Source of the DNA: a virus | Taxonomy: Duplodnaviria > Heunggongvirae > Uroviricota > Caudoviricetes | Reading direction: 5' to 3' (one strand) | DNA: 17,324 nt | Virus record (IMG/VR): IMGVR_UViG_2693429706_000005 | Shown: one piece after another, positions 3,866-15,906 of the stretch | Numbering within the stretch: position 1 is the stretch's first letter | Layout of the letters: every line of letters begins with the position of its first letter | Translations under genes and position numbers: made by a program | The notes under the pieces: generated by a model | What the model was told of the DNA's origin: nothing | The model's input: only the letters and a program-made list of their open reading frames with translations | Databases searched by the model: none

Positions 3866-5284
3866 ATGAAATATTTCTCAACTGGTTTTTATGTTTCAAA
3901 CTCCACATCTCTAGCTGAGATCTTTAATGAATGTTTTTCTTGGGTAAACGACTCACCACATACAACTTTTATTCCAGCACAATTAGTATGTGATTATAAA
4001 AGCGAGGAGTACTTCATAGAGTCTAAAAATGAAAGAATTGATATAATAACTTATAAAAACAAAGATACTAGTTTAGGCTGTTTTAGGTATTCGAAAATAT
4101 CTGAGCCACACAAATGGGTAACAGATATTTCAATTAATAAAAATCTCAAAACTGATACCATGTGGATTCAGGTGGAATCTAGCGTTGTAAGCCAAGATGC
4201 AGCTTATCTAGCCCCGCAACCTAAGAAACCATTAGTTGTTATGAGATTGATTGATAAATTTTCTGGTGGTCTTGATGATATTTTCAAGGTGTCAGTCGAA
4301 CCTCATTCCTTAGATGATACTGATGAACATTTAAATATAGCAGCTAAAGTTATAAATGGTGAAACTGACAACAGACTACCAATAATATACGTTAGCTCCA
4401 AGTATTTTTTTAATGAACATGCTCACAATATCATCCCAGAACGCCTTGCAAGAAAGGTATGCGGATTAGCACATGTATTAATTGAGCCTAGCAATAGACT
4501 ATTTTCTATTAAGCTAAAAAATGAGACAAATGCTAAAAATGCCTATGCTGGTGCTGTTGGTATCTATTGGCCACGGGGTCAAAATATCAGTTTTTATCGC
4601 CGTGGTGAGAAAACCGCAAAAGAATTTGAAGATGAGTTATTTGATGATGTTGTAAGAGCTACGACTACAATGGCTCCTGTCTCAGATAGTGGATGGAGTG
4701 AGATACAAACCAGAAAAACGAAAGACTCTATTAACTCACTCAAAGAAAGAGGAGAATACACACGCGAACTGATGGCGCTTTACGAAGCCGATAATGTTGC
4801 GAAAGATGACCAAATAGAAGATCTTAAGCATAAGATCTCCTCTTTAGAGCACAGAGTACGCACTCTTCAATCACAAGCTTCAGCCCAAGGAAGCATTGTG
4901 CTTAATGCTGGTGAAGAGACTGATTTTTTTGATGGAGAAATCAAAAATATAATTATTGACGCACTAAAAACTGCCATAAAAAATAAAAATGAATTTGGTA
5001 GAAGCTACCATATCTTATCATCCCTAATTGCCAATAATGAATACAATAAAGAAACCGAGAGTCGCCGCCAATTACTTAAAAGGACTTTAACAGGTTACAG
5101 AAGCATGGATAGCGCAACACAAAGAAATTTAAAGGACTTAGGTTTCAGTGCGTCAAGCGATGGAAAACACTGGAAGTTAACATATAATGAAGACCCTCGA
5201 TATTCCTATATTTTACCTAAAACAGGAAGTGACCACAGAGGTTCTTTAAATGCTATCTCGGATATAGCAAACATTATTTTCTAA
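3866..5284 (+). CDS. Hypothetical 472-aa protein in an AT-rich island, family not recognised; candidate defence/moron gene
   Basis: Long uninterrupted ORF with AAGGA RBS 6 nt before the ATG; strongly AT-rich versus flanking phage genes; opposite strand to the surrounding early-right operon; central heptad-like stretch (…RELMALYEADNVAKDDQIEDLKHKISSLEHRVRTLQSQ…); no motif I can assign. Confidence 0.7.
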   Translation: MKYFSTGFYVSNSTSLAEIFNECFSWVNDSPHTTFIPAQLVCDYKSEEYFIESKNERIDIITYKNKDTSLGCFRYSKISEPHKWVTDISINKNLKTDTMWIQVESSVVSQDAAYLAPQPKKPLVVMRLIDKFSGGLDDIFKVSVEPHSLDDTDEHLNIAAKVINGETDNRLPIIYVSSKYFFNEHAHNIIPERLARKVCGLAHVLIEPSNRLFSIKLKNETNAKNAYAGAVGIYWPRGQNISFYRRGEKTAKEFEDELFDDVVRATTTMAPVSDSGWSEIQTRKTKDSINSLKERGEYTRELMALYEADNVAKDDQIEDLKHKISSLEHRVRTLQSQASAQGSIVLNAGEETDFFDGEIKNIIIDALKTAIKNKNEFGRSYHILSSLIANNEYNKETESRRQLLKRTLTGYRSMDSATQRNLKDLGFSASSDGKHWKLTYNEDPRYSYILPKTGSDHRGSLNAISDIANIIF

Positions 5285-5292
5285 TAAATTTC

Positions 5293-5318
5293 AATAGCAC
5301 TCACAAATGAGTGCTATT
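5293..5318. terminator. Bidirectional hairpin between the convergent 472-aa and 84-aa ORFs
   Basis: Perfect 11-bp inverted repeat aatagcactca (5293-5303) / tgagtgctatt (5308-5318) with loop caaa, 9 nt after the TAA of the 472-aa gene and 18 nt after the stop of the minus-strand ORF; flanks are AT-rich but lack a clean U-run. Confidence 0.55.
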
Positions 5319-5335
5319 GTTGCCACTGAATTACT

Positions 5336-5590
5336 CTATTTAAATTCAACTTTTATCCCTTTGTTTAGCAGGGCATCAGAAACTGCCTTTTTTGTAACAT
5401 TTATCCCTGCAAGCAATGCTTTATGCATTGGTCCCTTAAAAATTTCTACTTCTTCTTCAGTGAGTTTAGGCAATGTAATATAAATAACATCTTTCATCTG
5501 CTTGTTTTTATAGCATGAGCTTCTTGTGTGCTTACAATCGATATTTTCTTTATTTCCCAAAACATCATCCCCTTTATAATTCAGTTCCAC
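5336..5590 (-). CDS. Hypothetical small protein (up to 84 aa; true start uncertain), AT-rich
   Basis: ORF-track entry starts at a GTG with no RBS; internal ATGs at 5495-5497 and further downstream. C-terminal segment MHKALLAGINVTKKAVSDALLNKGI has a helix-turn-helix-like pattern. Lies downstream of ren in the same transcriptional direction. Confidence 0.35.
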   Translation of the reverse strand: MELNYKGDDVLGNKENIDCKHTRSSCYKNKQMKDVIYITLPKLTEEEVEIFKGPMHKALLAGINVTKKAVSDALLNKGIKVEFK

Positions 5591-7652: not shown

Positions 7653-8192
7653 TCATATTGCCCCCAGCATGGTGGTCACCATCGCCATTAATGGACCAGC
7701 CAGATCCGGGTCCACACGAAACATCGACACAATACCTTCACTCATTTCCTTCAGTTTCTGGTGGCGTGGTGCGTTGAGAATGACAGCCTGTTTTGCCTCA
7801 CTGAGTTCCTTTTCCATTTCAGCCAACCGAGTCATGAAGCTATCCTGCTCAACCAGGTAACCGCGATATTCCAGCGGTAGTACCGCCAGAATTGCCGGGG
7901 TCAGTTCACGCACGTTATTTCGGTATTTTTCAGAATCGAATTTGTTATCGAGGAAGCGGAACAGCTTCTGGCGTGCACGGCTGACATCATCAGGGAAATC
8001 GATGGTGCCGTCGCCCTGCTCCCGATACTCATTCACAATGAGTGCGGCAACGACATCCTGATTATCTACAGCCGACCAGGCGCGGACGGCATCACGGATT
8101 TTTTCGTGGCCTGGAGCTTGTTTTGTTTGAGAACGATTTATCACCGCAGTCGGAATAAATCCGCTAGTCTGTTGGTATGTAAGTGGTTGCAT
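7653..8192 (-). CDS. YdaT-like protein in the cII position (179 aa)
   Basis: Strong RBS AAGGAG 6 nt upstream of the ATG at 8190-8192; lies between the cro-like gene and O; segment ELTPAILAVLPLEYR resembles the conserved motif I recall in Rac YdaT. Family assignment is from memory. Confidence 0.5.
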   Translation of the reverse strand: MQPLTYQQTSGFIPTAVINRSQTKQAPGHEKIRDAVRAWSAVDNQDVVAALIVNEYREQGDGTIDFPDDVSRARQKLFRFLDNKFDSEKYRNNVRELTPAILAVLPLEYRGYLVEQDSFMTRLAEMEKELSEAKQAVILNAPRHQKLKEMSEGIVSMFRVDPDLAGPLMAMVTTMLGAI

Positions 8193-8261
8193 AATTGACT
8201 CCTTTAGTTTGAATTGACTGTTAAGTTGATTGCTTATTGTTAAAGAGCGTGAAATGGAAAT

Positions 8262-8492
8262 TTAAGCTGCGTTCTTTTCGGTGTGTGGAAACAACTTCGG
8301 AAGATCCGGGCGAATCTGGTATGCCTTCACAACTCCACCAGTAGCCGTAACAATGCTGCCGACATGTTCAGGGGATACCTTTGCTTTGTTGTGAAGCCAC
8401 TTATAGACGGCCTGCTGTGAAACTTCGCAGGCATCGCCTAGTTTCTTTTGTGAACCAACGATATTGATCGCTGTTTTGATTGCTGGGTTCAT
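8262..8492 (-). CDS. Cro-like / YdaS-like HTH regulator (76 aa)
   Basis: Small HTH protein (…GSQKKLGDACEVSQQAVYKWLHNK…) transcribed divergently from the repressor gene; GGAGG RBS before the ATG at 8490-8492. Confidence 0.75.
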   Translation of the reverse strand: MNPAIKTAINIVGSQKKLGDACEVSQQAVYKWLHNKAKVSPEHVGSIVTATGGVVKAYQIRPDLPKLFPHTEKNAA

Positions 8493-8596
8493 AACAACCT
8501 CCGTGGTTAATCCGAATAAAGATTAAAACTATGGTTGTTTTTAGTCAACAACCATTTTCGTTTGATGAAATAAAACCTTGGTTGTACATTTGATCT
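8493..8596. promoter_or_regulatory. OR-like divergent promoter/operator region (pR leftward, pRM rightward)
   Basis: Inverted repeat atggttgtt…aacaaccat (8531-8555); -35 TTGACT on the minus strand (complement of 8543-8548) for the cro side; -35 TTGATG (8562-8567), 17-bp spacer, -10 TACATT (8585-8590) ending 6 nt before the repressor ATG, suggesting a leaderless repressor mRNA as in lambda pRM. Confidence 0.6.
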
Positions 8597-9286
8597 ATGA
8601 AAACAACACTCTCAGAAAGACTTAAAGAAGCCAGATTAGCGCGAGGCCTTACACAAAAGGCGCTTGGGGATTTGGTCGGGGTTAGCCAGGCTGCTATTCA
8701 GAAAATCGAAACAGGGAAAGCTAACCAAACAACTAAAATCGTGGAGATCGCGAACGCTTTGGGTGTGCGCGCAGAATGGTTATCTTCTGGCGTTGGAAAT
8801 ATGTCAGACAGTACAGTGCAACCAATACAATCAACTGTCAGCCATTCCAAATACTTCAAAATTGACGTTCTTGATATAGAAGTCAGTGCCGGGCCAGGTG
8901 TAATCAACCGTGAGTTTGTAGAAGTTCTACGCTCGGTTGAGTACTCGTTTGACGATGCTCGTCACATGTTCGATGGCAGGAAGGCGGAAAATATCCGCAT
9001 CATTAACGTGCGAGGTGACAGCATGTCAGGGACGATCGAACCAGGTGACCTGCTGTTCGTTGATATCACTGTTAAATCTTTCGACGGTGATGGCATCTAT
9101 GCGTTTCTGTACGACGACACTGCCCATGTAAAACGTCTTCAAATGATGAAGGATAAGCTGCTGGTTATCTCTGATAACAAGAGCTACTCGCCGTGGGACC
9201 CGATCGAGAAAGACGAGATGAACCGGGTGTTCATATTCGGTAAGGTCATTGGAAGCATGCCGCAGACGTACAGGAAGCATGGTTAA
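8597..9286 (+). CDS. CI-type prophage repressor (N-terminal HTH, C-terminal LexA-like S24 autopeptidase), 229 aa
   Basis: N-terminus LTQKALGDLVGVSQAAIQKIETGK (HTH); C-terminal domain with GDSM serine motif and a downstream Lys (…HVKRLQ…), typical of RecA-stimulated self-cleaving repressors. Not lambda cI by sequence. Confidence 0.9.
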   Translation: MKTTLSERLKEARLARGLTQKALGDLVGVSQAAIQKIETGKANQTTKIVEIANALGVRAEWLSSGVGNMSDSTVQPIQSTVSHSKYFKIDVLDIEVSAGPGVINREFVEVLRSVEYSFDDARHMFDGRKAENIRIINVRGDSMSGTIEPGDLLFVDITVKSFDGDGIYAFLYDDTAHVKRLQMMKDKLLVISDNKSYSPWDPIEKDEMNRVFIFGKVIGSMPQTYRKHG

Positions 9287-9515
9287 TTTATCTACGACTT
9301 AAGGGAGCGAAGGTTAAGGTTTATACCACTCGGATTAGATATTGCACTAAATTCTCTATAAGAACGCCAAATCTGTTTGCATATTTCAGTAAATATTCTC
9401 GTTGTTAGCTGAGATTTGTTGCTACTGTCAGCAAAATGTCCCCCTATCTCGTAGCGGTTTTTATTTCGAATCATTATGTTAAGATGTTTCTGATTATAAT
9501 GAATGGAAACATAAA

Positions 9516-9896
9516 ATGAGAAAAATCCTAATCGCTGCCATGATGGCATCTGTATTGGCTGGGTGTGCTTCTTCAGGCAACCAGCAACTCAAAAATGAAA
9601 CTGAAATTAGTGTCCAGTCTAAACTTCAGGAAGGTAAAACAACCAAGAATGAGGTTAAATCTTACTTTGGTTCTCCTGATGCTGTTTCATATACTGACAG
9701 TGGAAACGAGATCTGGAAGTACGCCTTTGCAAAAGTAAAAGTTAATGGCACCACTTTTATTCCATTCTATGGATTATTCCATAATGGAACGAACGGTACG
9801 AAAAAAGAACTTACTATTCTTTTTAACGATGACACGATTAAGAAATACACAATGTCAGAAACCCAAATAAACTCGAAATCAGGTTGGGCTGACTGA
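9516..9896 (+). CDS. Predicted outer-membrane lipoprotein (126 aa), possibly SmpA/OmlA (BamE-like) fold, in the rex position
   Basis: Signal peptide MRKILIAAMMASVLAGC with lipobox LAGC and Ala at +2; pattern T..EV..YFGSPD…EIWKY.F resembles the BamE/SmpA-OmlA motif; AT-rich; consensus -10 TATAAT at 9495-9500; terminator follows. Confidence 0.7.
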   Translation: MRKILIAAMMASVLAGCASSGNQQLKNETEISVQSKLQEGKTTKNEVKSYFGSPDAVSYTDSGNEIWKYAFAKVKVNGTTFIPFYGLFHNGTNGTKKELTILFNDDTIKKYTMSETQINSKSGWAD

Positions 9897-9904
9897 TAAT
9901 CATA

Positions 9905-9931
9905 CCCGGCAACCGCGCCGGGTTTTCTTTT
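9905..9931 (+). terminator. Rho-independent terminator after the lipoprotein gene
   Basis: cccggc (9905-9910), loop aaccgc, gccggg (9917-9922), then ttttctttt; starts 9 nt after the stop codon. Confidence 0.75.
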
Positions 9932-10039
9932 CCTCCCCCTCATAACTCATACCGTCCAAAAAACCACCACACCTCACTTCAGTTATCGCTATGCGATGCA
10001 AGTCACAAAATAAATCCATCCTAAATACAACCAGTTATA

Positions 10040-10100
10040 TTTAAAACAACCGACAAAACAACTTTTGTTGTTGACGATAAAACAACTATAGTTTTAAATT
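10040..10100 (+). promoter_or_regulatory. OL-like operator and pL-like promoter
   Basis: -35 TTGACG (10071-10076), 17-bp spacer, -10 TTAAAT (10094-10099); overlapping 10-bp palindrome aactatagtt (10084-10093), which recurs with one mismatch in the OR region (aactatggtt, 8527-8536); aacaac half-site motifs repeated. Confidence 0.55.
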
Positions 10101-10104
10101 AAAT

Positions 10105-10156
10105 TCATCGCAACGACACAACGATACGGTAACCACCTGTTTCACCGTTGCGATGA
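10105..10156 (+). promoter_or_regulatory. Structured leader: 11-bp inverted repeat enclosing 30 nt, just downstream of the pL-like promoter
   Basis: tcatcgcaacg (10105-10115) is the perfect reverse complement of cgttgcgatga (10146-10156); the intervening segment contains the ggtaacc palindrome; begins at about the predicted transcript start. Confidence 0.4.
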
Positions 10157-10377
10157 CCGCTTAGATCCGCAGTTTGAATTTCAGCAGGCTTCGGGGAGTG
10201 CGAGGGGTGAAACGGACGCGTGAACGTCGGTGTGACCAGCTGAAATCAACACAACACTTTATACCTCAGTCGCTTCAACGAGGCGGCTTAGTTATGACAA
10301 CCGGCGGCCATCCACCGCCTGAATACGCGCAGAAGTCTCTATATGTTCAGCAGCCCAGCTTACGGGCAGGAGTTTTT

Positions 10378-10584
10378 ATGGTTCATCAACATTACGGAAC
10401 GCAGACCGTTAATCGCGGTGCGGTCATGCCAGGAATGCTGGTCAAACACAAAGATGGTACCTGGACTGCATCAGCTAATTTACGCGGACGGCTTTATCTG
10501 CATCGCGGCATCGAGCGCACTTATACCCGTGATTTGCTCGTAGAAGTTTTTCTCGACGGACGCGGTAACGGCCTGAATCACTAA
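10378..10584 (+). CDS. Kil-like small protein (68 aa; KilR-like, possible cell-division inhibitor)
   Basis: ATG at 10378 with AGGAG RBS 5 nt upstream; product [65 protein letters not shown] resembles my recollection of Rac KilR (…HEGRTYIASAN…LYIRN…VFLGRDG…); first gene after the pL-like promoter. Confidence 0.5.
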
Positions 10585-10659
10585 TCCCCTTTCCTGTTTT
10601 CCTAATCAGCCTGGCATTTCGCGGGCGATATTTTCACAGCCATTTTCAGGAGTTCAGCC

Positions 10660-10956
10660 ATGAACGCTTATTACATTCAGGATCGTCTTGAGGCTCAGAG
10701 CTGGGCGCGTCACTACCAGCAGATCGCCCGTGAAGAGAAAGAGGCAGAACTGGCAGACGACATGGAAAAAGGCCTGCCCCAGCACCTGTTTGAATCGCTA
10801 TGCATCGATCATTTGCAACGCCACGGGGTCAGCAAAAAAGCCATTACCCGTGCGTTTGATGACGATGTTGAGTTTCAGGAGCGCATGGCAGAACACATCC
10901 GGTACATGGTTGAAACCATTGCTCACCACCAGGTTGATATTGATTCAGAGGTATAA
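10660..10956 (+). CDS. gam: Gam (RecBCD inhibitor), 98-aa form
   Basis: [56 protein letters not shown]... recalled as lambda Gam; AGGAG RBS 7 nt upstream. Confidence 0.9.
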
Positions 10957-13059: not shown

Positions 13060-13157
13060 ACATGAAAAGCAAAATCATCAGGGAGCTACAGGCTCCTTTT
13101 TTATTATTCGCATTCACCCTCAAGCGTATTAACCAACAATTCAGGGATTAATGAAAG

Positions 13158-14192: not shown

Positions 14193-14590
14193 TACTTACT
14201 GCACAATAATACACAAAATTGCGTAAATTTTTTGCATGGATTTTAGCTCTTTCAGCCGACATTTAAGGGGTAAATAGCATTTCCTAAAAGCAACTGCACC
14301 AACCCAACAGAATGGGCTACCGCTTACGTTGAGAGCAAAAAAGTGTATAGCAGCAATGAACAGCATCCTCGCACTGACGAGGATTTCTTTTATCTGAACT
14401 CGCTACGGCGAGTTTTTTTATGGAGATGATAAATGCACTTCCGAGTCACAGGTGAATAGAATGGAGAACCATTCAACAGAGTTATCGAAGCCGAGAACAT
14501 CAGCGACTGCTATGACCACTGGATGCTGTGGGCGCAGATAGCACATGCAGACGTAACCAATATTCGAATTGAAGAACTGAAAGAACACCA

Positions 14591-14612
14591 AGCCGCCTGA
14601 TGGCGGTTTTTT
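14591..14612 (+). terminator. Hairpin plus T-run immediately upstream of xis
   Basis: agccgcc (14591-14597), loop tgat, ggcgg (14602-14606), then tttttt (14607-14612); 27 nt before the xis ATG. Confidence 0.55.
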
Positions 14613-14639: not shown

Positions 14640-14858
14640 ATGTACTTGACACTTCAGGAGTGGAACGCTCGCCAGCGACGCCCAAGAAGCCTTGAAACAG
14701 TTCGTCGATGGGTGCGCGAATGCAGGATATTCCCTCCTCCGGTTAAGGATGGAAGAGAATATCTGTTCCACGAATCAGCGGTAAAGGTTGACTTAAATCG
14801 ACCAGTAACAGGTAGCCTTTTGAAGAGGATCAGAAATGGGAAGAAGGCGAAGTCATGA
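14640..14858 (+). CDS. xis: Excisionase Xis (72 aa)
   Basis: MYLTLQEWNARQRRPRSLETVRRWVRECRIFPPPVKDGREYLFHESAVKVDLNRPVTG... recalled as lambda Xis; overlaps the int start as in lambda. Confidence 0.95.
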   Translation: MYLTLQEWNARQRRPRSLETVRRWVRECRIFPPPVKDGREYLFHESAVKVDLNRPVTGSLLKRIRNGKKAKS

Positions 14859-15906
14859 GCGCCGGGATTTACCCCCTAACCTTTATATAAGAAACAATGG
14901 ATATTACTGCTACAGGGACCCAAGGACGGGTAAAGAGTTTGGATTAGGCCGAGACAGGCGAATCGCAATCACTGAAGCTATACAGGCCAACATTGAGTTA
15001 TTTTCAGGACACAAACACAAGCCTCTGACAGCGAGAATCAACAGTGATAATTCCGTTACGTTACATTCATGGCTTGATCGCTACGAAAAAATCCTGGCCA
15101 GCAGAGGAATCAAGCAGAAGACACTCATAAATTACATGAGCAAAATTAAAGCAATAAGGAGGGGTCTGCCTGATGCTCCACTTGAAGACATCACCACAAA
15201 AGAAATTGCGGCAATGCTCAATGGATACATAGACGAGGGCAAGGCGGCGTCAGCCAAGTTAATCAGATCAACACTGAGCGATGCATTCCGAGAGGCAATA
15301 GCTGAAGGCCATATAACAACAAACCCTGTCGCTGCCACTCGCGCAGCAAAATCAGAGGTAAGGAGATCAAGACTTACGGCTGACGAATACCTGAAAATTT
15401 ATCAAGCAGCAGAATCATCACCATGTTGGCTCAGACTTGCAATGGAACTGGCTGTTGTTACCGGGCAACGAGTTGGTGATTTATGCGAAATGAAGTGGTC
15501 TGATATCGTAGATGGATATCTTTATGTCGAGCAAAGCAAAACAGGCGTAAAAATTGCCATCCCAACAACATTGCATGTTGATGCTCTCGGGATATCAATG
15601 AAGGAAACACTTGATAAATGCAAAGAGATTCTTGGCGGAGAAACCATAATTGCATCTACTCGTCGCGAACCGCTTTCATCCGGCACAGTATCAAGGTATT
15701 TTATGCGCGCACGAAAAGCATCAGGTCTTTCCTTCGAAGGGGATCCGCCTACCTTTCACGAGTTGCGCAGTTTGTCTGCAAGACTCTATGAGAAGCAGAT
15801 AAGCGATAAGTTTGCTCAACATCTTCTCGGGCATAAGTCGGACACCATGGCATCACAGTATCGTGATGACAGAGGCAGGGAGTGGGACAAAATTGAAATC
15901 AAATAA
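14836..15906 (+). CDS. int: Tyrosine integrase Int (356 aa)
   Basis: MGRRRSHERRDLPPNLYIRNNGYYCYRDPRTGKEFGLGRDRRIAITEAIQ... recalled as lambda Int, full length; C-terminal catalytic region present (…HELRSLSARLYEKQ…LLGHKSDTMASQYRDD…). Confidence 0.95.
   Translation: MGRRRSHERRDLPPNLYIRNNGYYCYRDPRTGKEFGLGRDRRIAITEAIQANIELFSGHKHKPLTARINSDNSVTLHSWLDRYEKILASRGIKQKTLINYMSKIKAIRRGLPDAPLEDITTKEIAAMLNGYIDEGKAASAKLIRSTLSDAFREAIAEGHITTNPVAATRAAKSEVRRSRLTADEYLKIYQAAESSPCWLRLAMELAVVTGQRVGDLCEMKWSDIVDGYLYVEQSKTGVKIAIPTTLHVDALGISMKETLDKCKEILGGETIIASTRREPLSSGTVSRYFMRARKASGLSFEGDPPTFHELRSLSARLYEKQISDKFAQHLLGHKSDTMASQYRDDRGREWDKIEIK

Follow-up and report, generated by a model that had tools for sequence, protein, structure and literature searches.

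A covarying RNA cassette in the early left leader of N-less lambdoid prophages: a candidate antitermination element at the putL/nutL position

The DNA analysed here (the window, 17,324 nucleotides in all) is identified as a lambdoid prophage. It adjoins a ybhC-like gene, a neighbourhood which we take to be that of attB-lambda in E. coli K-12, and its plus strand corresponds to the leftward direction of lambda. The cI gene lies at 8597-9286, and a BamE-like lipoprotein gene (9516-9896) is followed by a terminator and then by oL and pL. On the pL side the order is oL/pL, leader, kil, gam, bet, exo, several small ORFs and xis/int (14640-15906), with xis beginning at 14640 and int at 14836. The genes cro (8262-8492), a YdaT-type 'cII', O, P and ren run on the minus strand. 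What occupies the cII position (7653-8192, minus strand) is a gene for a 179-aa YdaT-domain protein (PF06254), and at the corresponding position HK639 has a 181-aa gene annotated as cII. A defence gene of the PD-lambda-1 type (3866-5284, plus strand) is set convergently within the pR operon, in an AT-rich island between ren and a ninB-like gene, with a 12-bp hairpin (5292-5319) and a small unassigned ORF (5336-5590, minus strand) nearby; the nin genes can be reached by pR transcription only across about 1.8 kb of antisense, untranslated sequence. A scaffold gap of ten N (2109-2118) falls within a tRNA-Met gene, and the window is therefore silent on the completeness of the prophage. This tRNA-Met gene (2052-2118) lies next to asnB, the asnB/tRNA side and the prophage rusA side are perhaps not adjacent across the gap, and the Q, lysis and structural genes of the prophage lie outside the window.

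The region is 99.5% identical to phage PhiR26_1, which has a Q gene, and the host given in the record is E. coli K-12 MG1655. The leader that follows pL is present in 16 isolated phages; in the 15 besides PhiR26_1, which include 4A7 (Bievrevirus), Perceval, Turner and 1W, it is about 96% identical. An earlier note, made from this DNA alone, had allowed that the prophage might simply be defective, a view with which the near-identity to PhiR26_1 and the presence of the leader in isolated phages do not agree. Of 5426 complete E. coli genomes, 2210 contain the first 163 nt of the leader, which are mostly present as a single copy and are without annotation in every complete E. coli genome that carries them.

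The oL operators and pL together span 10043-10099 on the plus strand and include a direct repeat as well as inverted repeats, the latter shared with pR. Two 17-bp operator repeats (AAAACAAC..GTTTT; 10055-10071 and 10079-10095) overlap pL, a third, partial copy starts at 10043, and the repeats recur inverted at pR (8514-8563). The promoter itself has a -35 element TTGACG (10071-10076, plus strand), a spacer of 17 nt and a -10 element TTAAAT (10094-10099, plus strand), from which transcription would start at about 10106-10108. Counted from about 10107, the leader runs for about 271 nt to kil, a member of PHROG 294. Both the pL-like promoter and the leader of roughly 270 nt ahead of a Kil-like gene, as the earlier note had described them, are thus confirmed.

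The transcript opens with a hairpin (10105-10156, plus strand) whose core is a 7-bp stem, 10108-10114 with 10147-10153. It was to this region, as a perfect 11-bp inverted repeat (10105-10115/10146-10156), that attention had first been drawn. The repeat exists in the window but is not a conserved feature: it is perfect in only nine of 66 distinct relatives, G10115 is A in 57 of the 66, and in the homologue from Scandinavium its 3' arm is replaced. Its outer pairs vary with immunity type, since the transcription start is the point at which immunity region and leader are joined in the mosaic. Judged from these alleles, the 11-bp repeat is a peculiarity of the window. A small alternative hairpin, AUCG (10107-10110) with CGAU (10122-10125), excludes the 5' stem and corresponds to the CAUCGAAACGAAACAUCGA start common to phi80, HK639 and HK225; CAUCGAAACGAAACAUCGA is the opening of many lambdoid pL transcripts, of which the window carries a variant. 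Folding of the whole leader, proposed as a check together with covariance analysis, gave a structure no better than those of shuffled sequences (277 nt, z = -0.87), but a part of about 90 nt inside it does show covariation.

This part, a conserved RNA cassette or core element (10155-10248, plus strand), was delineated from homologues with MAFFT, RNAalifold and a covariance model, and lies at about +48 to +141 from the presumed pL start. Its structured element of 84 nt is built from a pair of stem-loops, B and C/D, together with a helix that closes it. Helix A pairs 10158-10160 with 10200-10202; stem-loop B pairs 10167-10169 and 10171-10176 with 10185-10190 and 10192-10194 around the loop AAUUUCAG; helix C pairs 10203-10204 and 10206-10208 with 10235-10237 and 10240-10241; and stem-loop D pairs 10212-10213 and 10215-10217 with 10226-10228 and 10230-10231. 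The blocks GACCGCUUAGA, UUGAAUUUCAGCAGG, GGGGAGUGCGAGGGGUG and GUGUGACCAGCUGAAA are nearly invariant, and the cassette contains conserved single-stranded purine-rich blocks and loops. When ten representatives were aligned with MAFFT on sequence only, RNAalifold returned 22 pairs, four of them with compensatory changes on both sides and none broken, covariation that draws on about six substitution events in only three or four lineages. Among 44 distinct sequences 99.4% of cells are paired, against 25-38% when the partners are slid, although the former figure, taken from an alignment of 49 sequences fitted to the covariance model, leans towards structure. Between the window and L151 there are 16 differences in the 84-nt element, seven of which fall in paired columns, and between the window and L150, a prophage of Scandinavium hiltneri, there are 18, eight of them in paired columns; no pair is broken in either comparison. 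The G10214.G10229 mismatch of the window is a G-C pair in the L233 type and U.G in L284. The common polymorphisms within the E. coli lineage are structure-neutral, 10173 changing a U.G to a C-G pair and 10212 an A-U to a G.U pair, with the bulge at 10191 free to vary, and helices A and C are invariant across the alignment.

The consensus fold is the single-sequence energy minimum in four lineages, and its stability is unremarkable (z from -0.1 to -2.0). Loop B (10178-10184) is complementary to the conserved 3' tail (10240-10246) in a way that fits all the variation, with no double compensation, and could form a pseudoknot. A first structural model combined a stem enclosing GACCGCUUAGA with a long-range helix between AUUUCAGC and GCUGAAAU; the stem proved to be out of register between lineages and was dropped, and all that is left of the helix is a possible pseudoknot, which lacks double compensation. 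Within the cassette, nucleotide diversity is 0.036-0.054, as compared with 0.048-0.082 at third codon positions in the nearby kil, gam and bet genes (the rows for kil being offset by one position), which places the cassette at between about half of the third-position level and equality with it. Low diversity alone does not prove constraint, the E. coli lineage of the leader being simply young, and conservation as evidence of constraint was rejected, given a leader diversity so near that of third codon positions.

A BLAST search with the 5' part of the leader (about 10141-10257) gave no match beyond the E. coli group. L150, which surfaced through a search for kil relatives in other genera, has a pL of its own with the cassette behind it (nhmmer E = 2e-23). 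With the window allele left out, pattern searches added 14 carriers in IMG/VR and one in metagenomes, where a scan for divergent copies returned that single locus; these carriers show two further downstream contexts, and the cassette is thus followed by three different gene contexts in total. The covariance model of the cassette finds exactly one match in each of 49 carrier loci, and in 80 further loci (803 kb) it matches only the carriers L233 and L284, with none in put, nut or kil loci. In Rfam the sole match at gathering thresholds was to tRNA, and at E values of up to 10 the interval 8100-10700 gave chance-level matches only, none of them on the plus strand in the cassette. No description of the cassette was found in full-text searches, whose coverage did not extend to King et al. 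2011, a study that reportedly described put homologues, that of HK639 included, and is said to have concerned put homologues only. As a side observation, an IS3-family element (L130, 2651-3864) is inserted in the cassette directly after 10214 in one E. coli genome and parts the cassette from kil; a partial match, H113, considered as a sign of a longer gene, was dismissed as an IS3 insertion.

The position of the cassette is most telling when related leaders are compared. The set consisted of 115 IMG/VR leaders with a common 5' start, in which the antitermination cassettes follow a shared part of about 45 nt; a motif screen classed 37 as having a strict boxA, 31 as put and one as having the cassette, and most of the 46 unclassed leaders have a variant boxA followed by a boxB-like hairpin. 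L233 and HK639 are 97% identical upstream of the slot and 94% identical downstream of it, and within the slot L233 has 99 nt of cassette where HK639 has 79 nt with a complete match to the put model (L005, 1335-1404). Similarly, leaders of the L151 type share with L210 and L222 the 5' start, a module containing a three-codon mini-ORF and a long downstream leader, and the cassette of L151 sits where L210 and L222 have boxA and a boxB hairpin. As read from these alignments, the cassette takes the exact slot of putL in leaders of the HK639 type, or of boxA plus boxB in leaders of the nutL types, and cassette, put and nut appear to be mutually exclusive, each related phage carrying one of the three. 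In agreement with this, the put model found no put element in cassette carriers.

Several of these leaders share a wider organisation. In the IMG/VR loci L160-L278 (for example L210, L222, L189 and L251) the order is fixed, with the CAUCGAAACGAAACAUCGA hairpin, a second hairpin, the antitermination cassette and then GGCUUUGGGGUGUGGUG, the complement of which lies just 5' of the first gene. Variants of boxA among these leaders include TGCTCATTAACAA, TGCTTATTTAACAA and TGCTTCTTTAACAA. The mini-ORF (ATG AAG/GTG CAC TAA), which has a strong Shine-Dalgarno sequence and lies directly 3' of the cassette (L151, 10360-10420; also L210 and L222), is seen in some nut-type and some core-type leaders, and it is followed by 400-550 nt of noncoding leader, which is conserved and akin to the 'nutL regulatory' region of phi80.

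Downstream of the cassette the window carries what we call the post-tL1 module (10258-10340, plus strand), with a hairpin at 10269-10289 and a conserved uORF start at ATG 10294 (MTTGGHPPP). The module (present also at L006, 1367-1459; L007, 2501-2595; L005, 2499-2597) matches phi80, HK225, HK639 and several Enterobacter and Salmonella phages, among which the stem sequence of its hairpin differs while the pairing is kept. In phi80, HK225 and HK639 it comes directly after a strong terminator (tL1 after the phi80 'N'; annotated terminators in HK639), and in these three phages the uORF, with its three consecutive proline codons, is a separate frame of about 20 codons. In L150 the cassette and the module are 1.1 kb apart, and between them lie a long leader, a gene and a terminator. 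In the window the two lie within 10 nt of each other, the tL1-type terminator is missing, and the uORF is in frame with kil, giving the 96-aa product that most gene callers report. The junction coincides with the end of the tL1 T run of relatives, and it appears that the window lineage has lost its first gene or genes together with tL1, such that the cassette now adjoins the post-tL1 module and kil.

The kil gene (10378-10584, plus strand) encodes a KilR-like cell-division inhibitor of 68 aa. In-frame starts upstream, at 10294 (96 aa) and 10207 (125 aa), explain the longer calls: PhiR26_1 is annotated with a 125-aa 'Kil' from GTG, and other records give 96 or 68 aa. The family profile and the distant homologues support a 68-aa Kil protein starting at ATG 10378, and coding in the upstream extension of the ORF is not conserved. 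This corrects an annotation in which the cassette region is currently either blank or absorbed into an over-long 'Kil' ORF. The frame that opens at GTG 10207 begins with an arginine-rich stretch, KRTRERR, resembling RRRERR of lambda N, and has a Shine-Dalgarno-like GGGGAG 8 nt upstream. A TAG at 10267 interrupts it in 19 of 66 variants, a 5-nt insertion shifts it in four of 66, and distant homologues of types b and c read GTG-TAA at its start; with these stops and frameshifts, and a frame that is not conserved, it was rejected as a gene or as a hidden N.

In accord with what had been noted at the outset, no N gene was found in the window by Pfam, by PHROGs, in the annotation of near-identical viable phages or by an N-seeded jackhmmer search, and none is annotated in PhiR26_1 or in the 15 other isolated phages with the leader. 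Across the leaders compared, a homology search, whose sensitivity is limited by the high diversity of N proteins, detected N-like genes with 17 nut-type leaders (16 of the 56 classed by boxA, plus L251, the variant boxA of which the motif missed) and with none of 57 cassette leaders or 28 put leaders. The leader was also considered as a degenerate nutL-N region of lambda, and this was rejected since a motif of 22 nt is all that aligns, an alignment that 8 of 1000 shuffles reach, and this motif is a G-rich block which N leaders have in common.

A role in antitermination presupposes terminators. A canonical terminator with a GC stem and T5-6, of the form CCCGC-TCCG-GCGGG-T6 in the L233 type, lies between the cassette and the delayed-early genes in all ten carriers other than the window for which enough sequence is available, and no strong terminator separates cassette and kil in the window lineage; any such role would therefore concern distal terminators. 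Three sites on the plus strand come into question. An intrinsic-terminator-like site at 13080-13108 (hairpin 13080-13098) follows an orf61-like gene and is conserved in the isolated phage 4A7, a second, with a T run, lies at 14396-14415 upstream of xis/int, and a third, also with a T run, lies at 14590-14609 just upstream of xis (14640) and int (14836). Terminator-like hairpins had earlier been proposed in both early operons; the one before xis is confirmed as terminator-like, whereas that at 5292-5319 has a 12-bp stem with only a weak T tail and lies between convergent genes.

The pR transcript is organised differently. A consensus boxA, CGCUCUUUAACAA, lies at 8237-8249 on the minus strand, 13 nt after the cro stop, and the positions 8237-8248 match GCTCTTTAACAA at 12 of 12, the only such site in the window in a scan allowing up to two mismatches. 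This boxA (CGCTCTTTAACAA) is of the perfect rrn type and lies within unstructured AU-rich RNA, with no boxB hairpin; in relatives with the 4A7 immunity region it is absent. By analogy with the N-independent boxA/Nus-factor protection described for rrn operons and CRISPR arrays (PMC5725501, PMC7665894), it may shield the pR operon from Rho by way of Nus factors and without N. When leader and pR transcript were aligned locally, in the window and in 4A7, and compared with shuffles, the similarity was not significant. An element matching the leader downstream of the cro-side promoter, for which the earlier note had recommended a search, was found neither by local alignment nor with the cassette model, which is single copy per locus; the lone boxA is what lies there.

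Taken together, the leader can be read as a mosaic of four parts: pL and its operators, a short 5' hairpin region, the cassette (10155-10248), and a post-tL1 module fused to kil. The cassette would act in cis, as nascent RNA, on the polymerase that has just transcribed it, and would render that polymerase resistant to downstream terminators without an N protein, which is the job of the put RNA in HK022 and HK639 performed through an unrelated sequence and fold. Since the first genes and tL1 have apparently been deleted from the window, the terminators acted on here would be those farther along the operon, at 13080, 14396 and 14590, before xis/int is reached; Rho is possibly a further target. 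From the conservation of the cassette, its covarying fold, its one copy per phage, its exchange with putL and nutL, the lack of N and the presence of downstream terminators, we infer antitermination activity, binding to RNA polymerase and independence of phage proteins. That the cassette serves antitermination of some kind, a protein-dependent version included, is fairly probable; that it is an RNA-only, cis-acting antiterminator, put-like in function, is in our judgement evenly poised. Counted against this reading are the lack of a pR partner, the modest z of the fold, the near-neutral diversity and the lack of a terminator close to kil. The earlier suggestion of put-like RNA antitermination survives to the extent that the evidence most favours an RNA acting in cis from the putL/nutL position, but neither membership of the put family nor the hairpin that had been singled out does.

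Other readings of the cassette deserve weight. It might be an antitermination site of the nut kind that needs a trans factor, either an unrecognised phage protein or host Nus factors. The cassette fills the nutL slot on this reading too, its conserved single-stranded purine-rich blocks and loops could be sites for protein, and the boxA on the pR transcript of the window makes it probable that Nus factors are used by the phage. We nevertheless regard such a requirement as unlikely, as the homology searches showed no N-like gene in any carrier, the neighbouring genes differ among carriers, the cassette has no boxA, and its 99 nt move alone between identical flanks, a unit too small to bring a protein along. 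Some different task in the leader, for example stabilising the mRNA or exposing it to processing by RNase III, controlling translation, serving as a Rho-dependent attenuator or giving rise to a small RNA, would suit the window, where the cassette lies directly 5' of kil with no terminator between, and would sit well with a diversity not far below neutral; the block GGCUUCGGGGAGUGCGAGGGGUG also resembles the N-leader motif GGCUUUGGGGUGUG, in that alignment to lambda which 8 of 1000 shuffles equal. Yet the cassette replaces precisely the put unit and the boxA-boxB unit, and unrelated genes follow it in its three contexts. In types b and c, moreover, the N-leader-like motif or its HK639 counterpart persists downstream of the cassette, which is therefore distinct from that motif. 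On balance this, too, seems rather unlikely.

It is also conceivable that in the window itself the cassette is a relic, antitermination having become unneeded with the loss of the first gene and tL1 and the sequence having been kept as the lineage is young. The junction right at the end of the relatives' tL1 T run and the identity of about 95% throughout the lineage would be expected on this account. We consider it distinctly improbable, given that frequent polymorphisms in the window lineage keep the pairs (10173 and 10212, with 10191 in the bulge), that terminators remain before xis/int, and that 16 isolated phages, besides 2210 of the 5426 complete E. coli genomes, carry the cassette. Two further proposals look elsewhere than the cassette. 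One takes the 11-bp inverted repeat with which the leader opens for a member of the HK022 put family. Its hairpin is real, is statistically unlikely and lies at the 5' terminus of the RNA, but it is perfect in only the nine variants of 66 mentioned above and absent from distant homologues, scores no more than 10 bits with the put model and has no second site, which makes such an identity very improbable indeed. Hardly more credible is a hidden N-like protein encoded from GTG 10207: against its well-placed GGGGAG and its likeness to RRRERR stand the stop at 10267, the 5-nt insertion and the GTG-TAA of types b and c, and PGAP annotates nothing there, a protein search having given Kil relatives only.

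Were the cassette an RNA-only antiterminator, it would constitute a second, unrelated phage RNA and thereby an independent system for learning how a nascent RNA reprograms the elongation complex. It would also explain the expression of the early left and xis/int genes in a very common group of E. coli prophages and phages that lack N (Bievrevirus 4A7, PhiR26_1 and their relatives), and nut, put and cassette would be interchangeable modules. The broadest form of the proposal, a third lambdoid solution to early antitermination, structurally unrelated to N/nut and put, in which a two-hairpin nascent RNA of about 90 nt modifies polymerase alone, is swapped with nutL and putL at a fixed slot of the pL leader and is carried by prophages in some 40% of complete E. 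coli genomes, falls a little short of an even chance.

To our knowledge, cis-acting RNAs proposed to make polymerase resistant to terminators are very rare, the put family and EAR being the known examples. The EAR RNA, which belongs to the eps operons of Bacillus, is structured and acts in cis, and has been proposed to bring about processive antitermination without a dedicated phage protein, and it differs from the cassette in organism, sequence and context alike. Likeness to the boxA systems of rrn operons and CRISPR arrays is confined to the pR side, where in the window transcript a perfect boxA of the rrn type comes directly behind cro and neither boxB nor N accompanies it, whereas the pL cassette has no boxA and 4A7 has none at all. 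With lambda nutL the cassette shares its position in the pL leader, where it is exchanged with boxA-boxB between homologous flanks, and it has a block rich in G that is similar to the motif found after nut sites; unlike lambda, the phage has no N gene, and the window leader has no boxA in a scan allowing up to two mismatches and no boxB-like hairpin.

The closest parallel is with put. Both are cis elements just downstream of pL in N-less lambdoid phages. Only in outline is the architecture alike, at about 70-90 nt with two stem-loops, the helices of the cassette spanning 84 nt with its closing helix included. Readthrough of terminators by put needs no factor and is blocked by mutations in the zinc-binding domain of beta' (rpoC). 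Relative to putL of HK639 the cassette lies in the identical slot between identical flanks, with terminators downstream, and it resembles HK639 also in that the put-like RNA annotated there is in the left operon only, the cassette likewise having no right copy; HK022, by contrast, has a second put copy after pR, which the window phage does not. A put covariance model built from HK022 putL, HK022 putR and HK639 putL gives its own members 69-91 bits; for the window, L001, L002 and L009 its scores do not exceed 10 bits (E ~1), none of these weak matches lies in the leader, and the cassette was rejected as a member of the put family on this ground. Nor does it have the put motifs CGAACGGC and GGCGGG..CAGGA or any similarity in sequence or covariance model (features of put from PMC9378689). 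The comparison would thus define the cassette as a non-homologous, presumably cis-acting RNA in the antiterminator slot, new relative to put, nut and Rfam.
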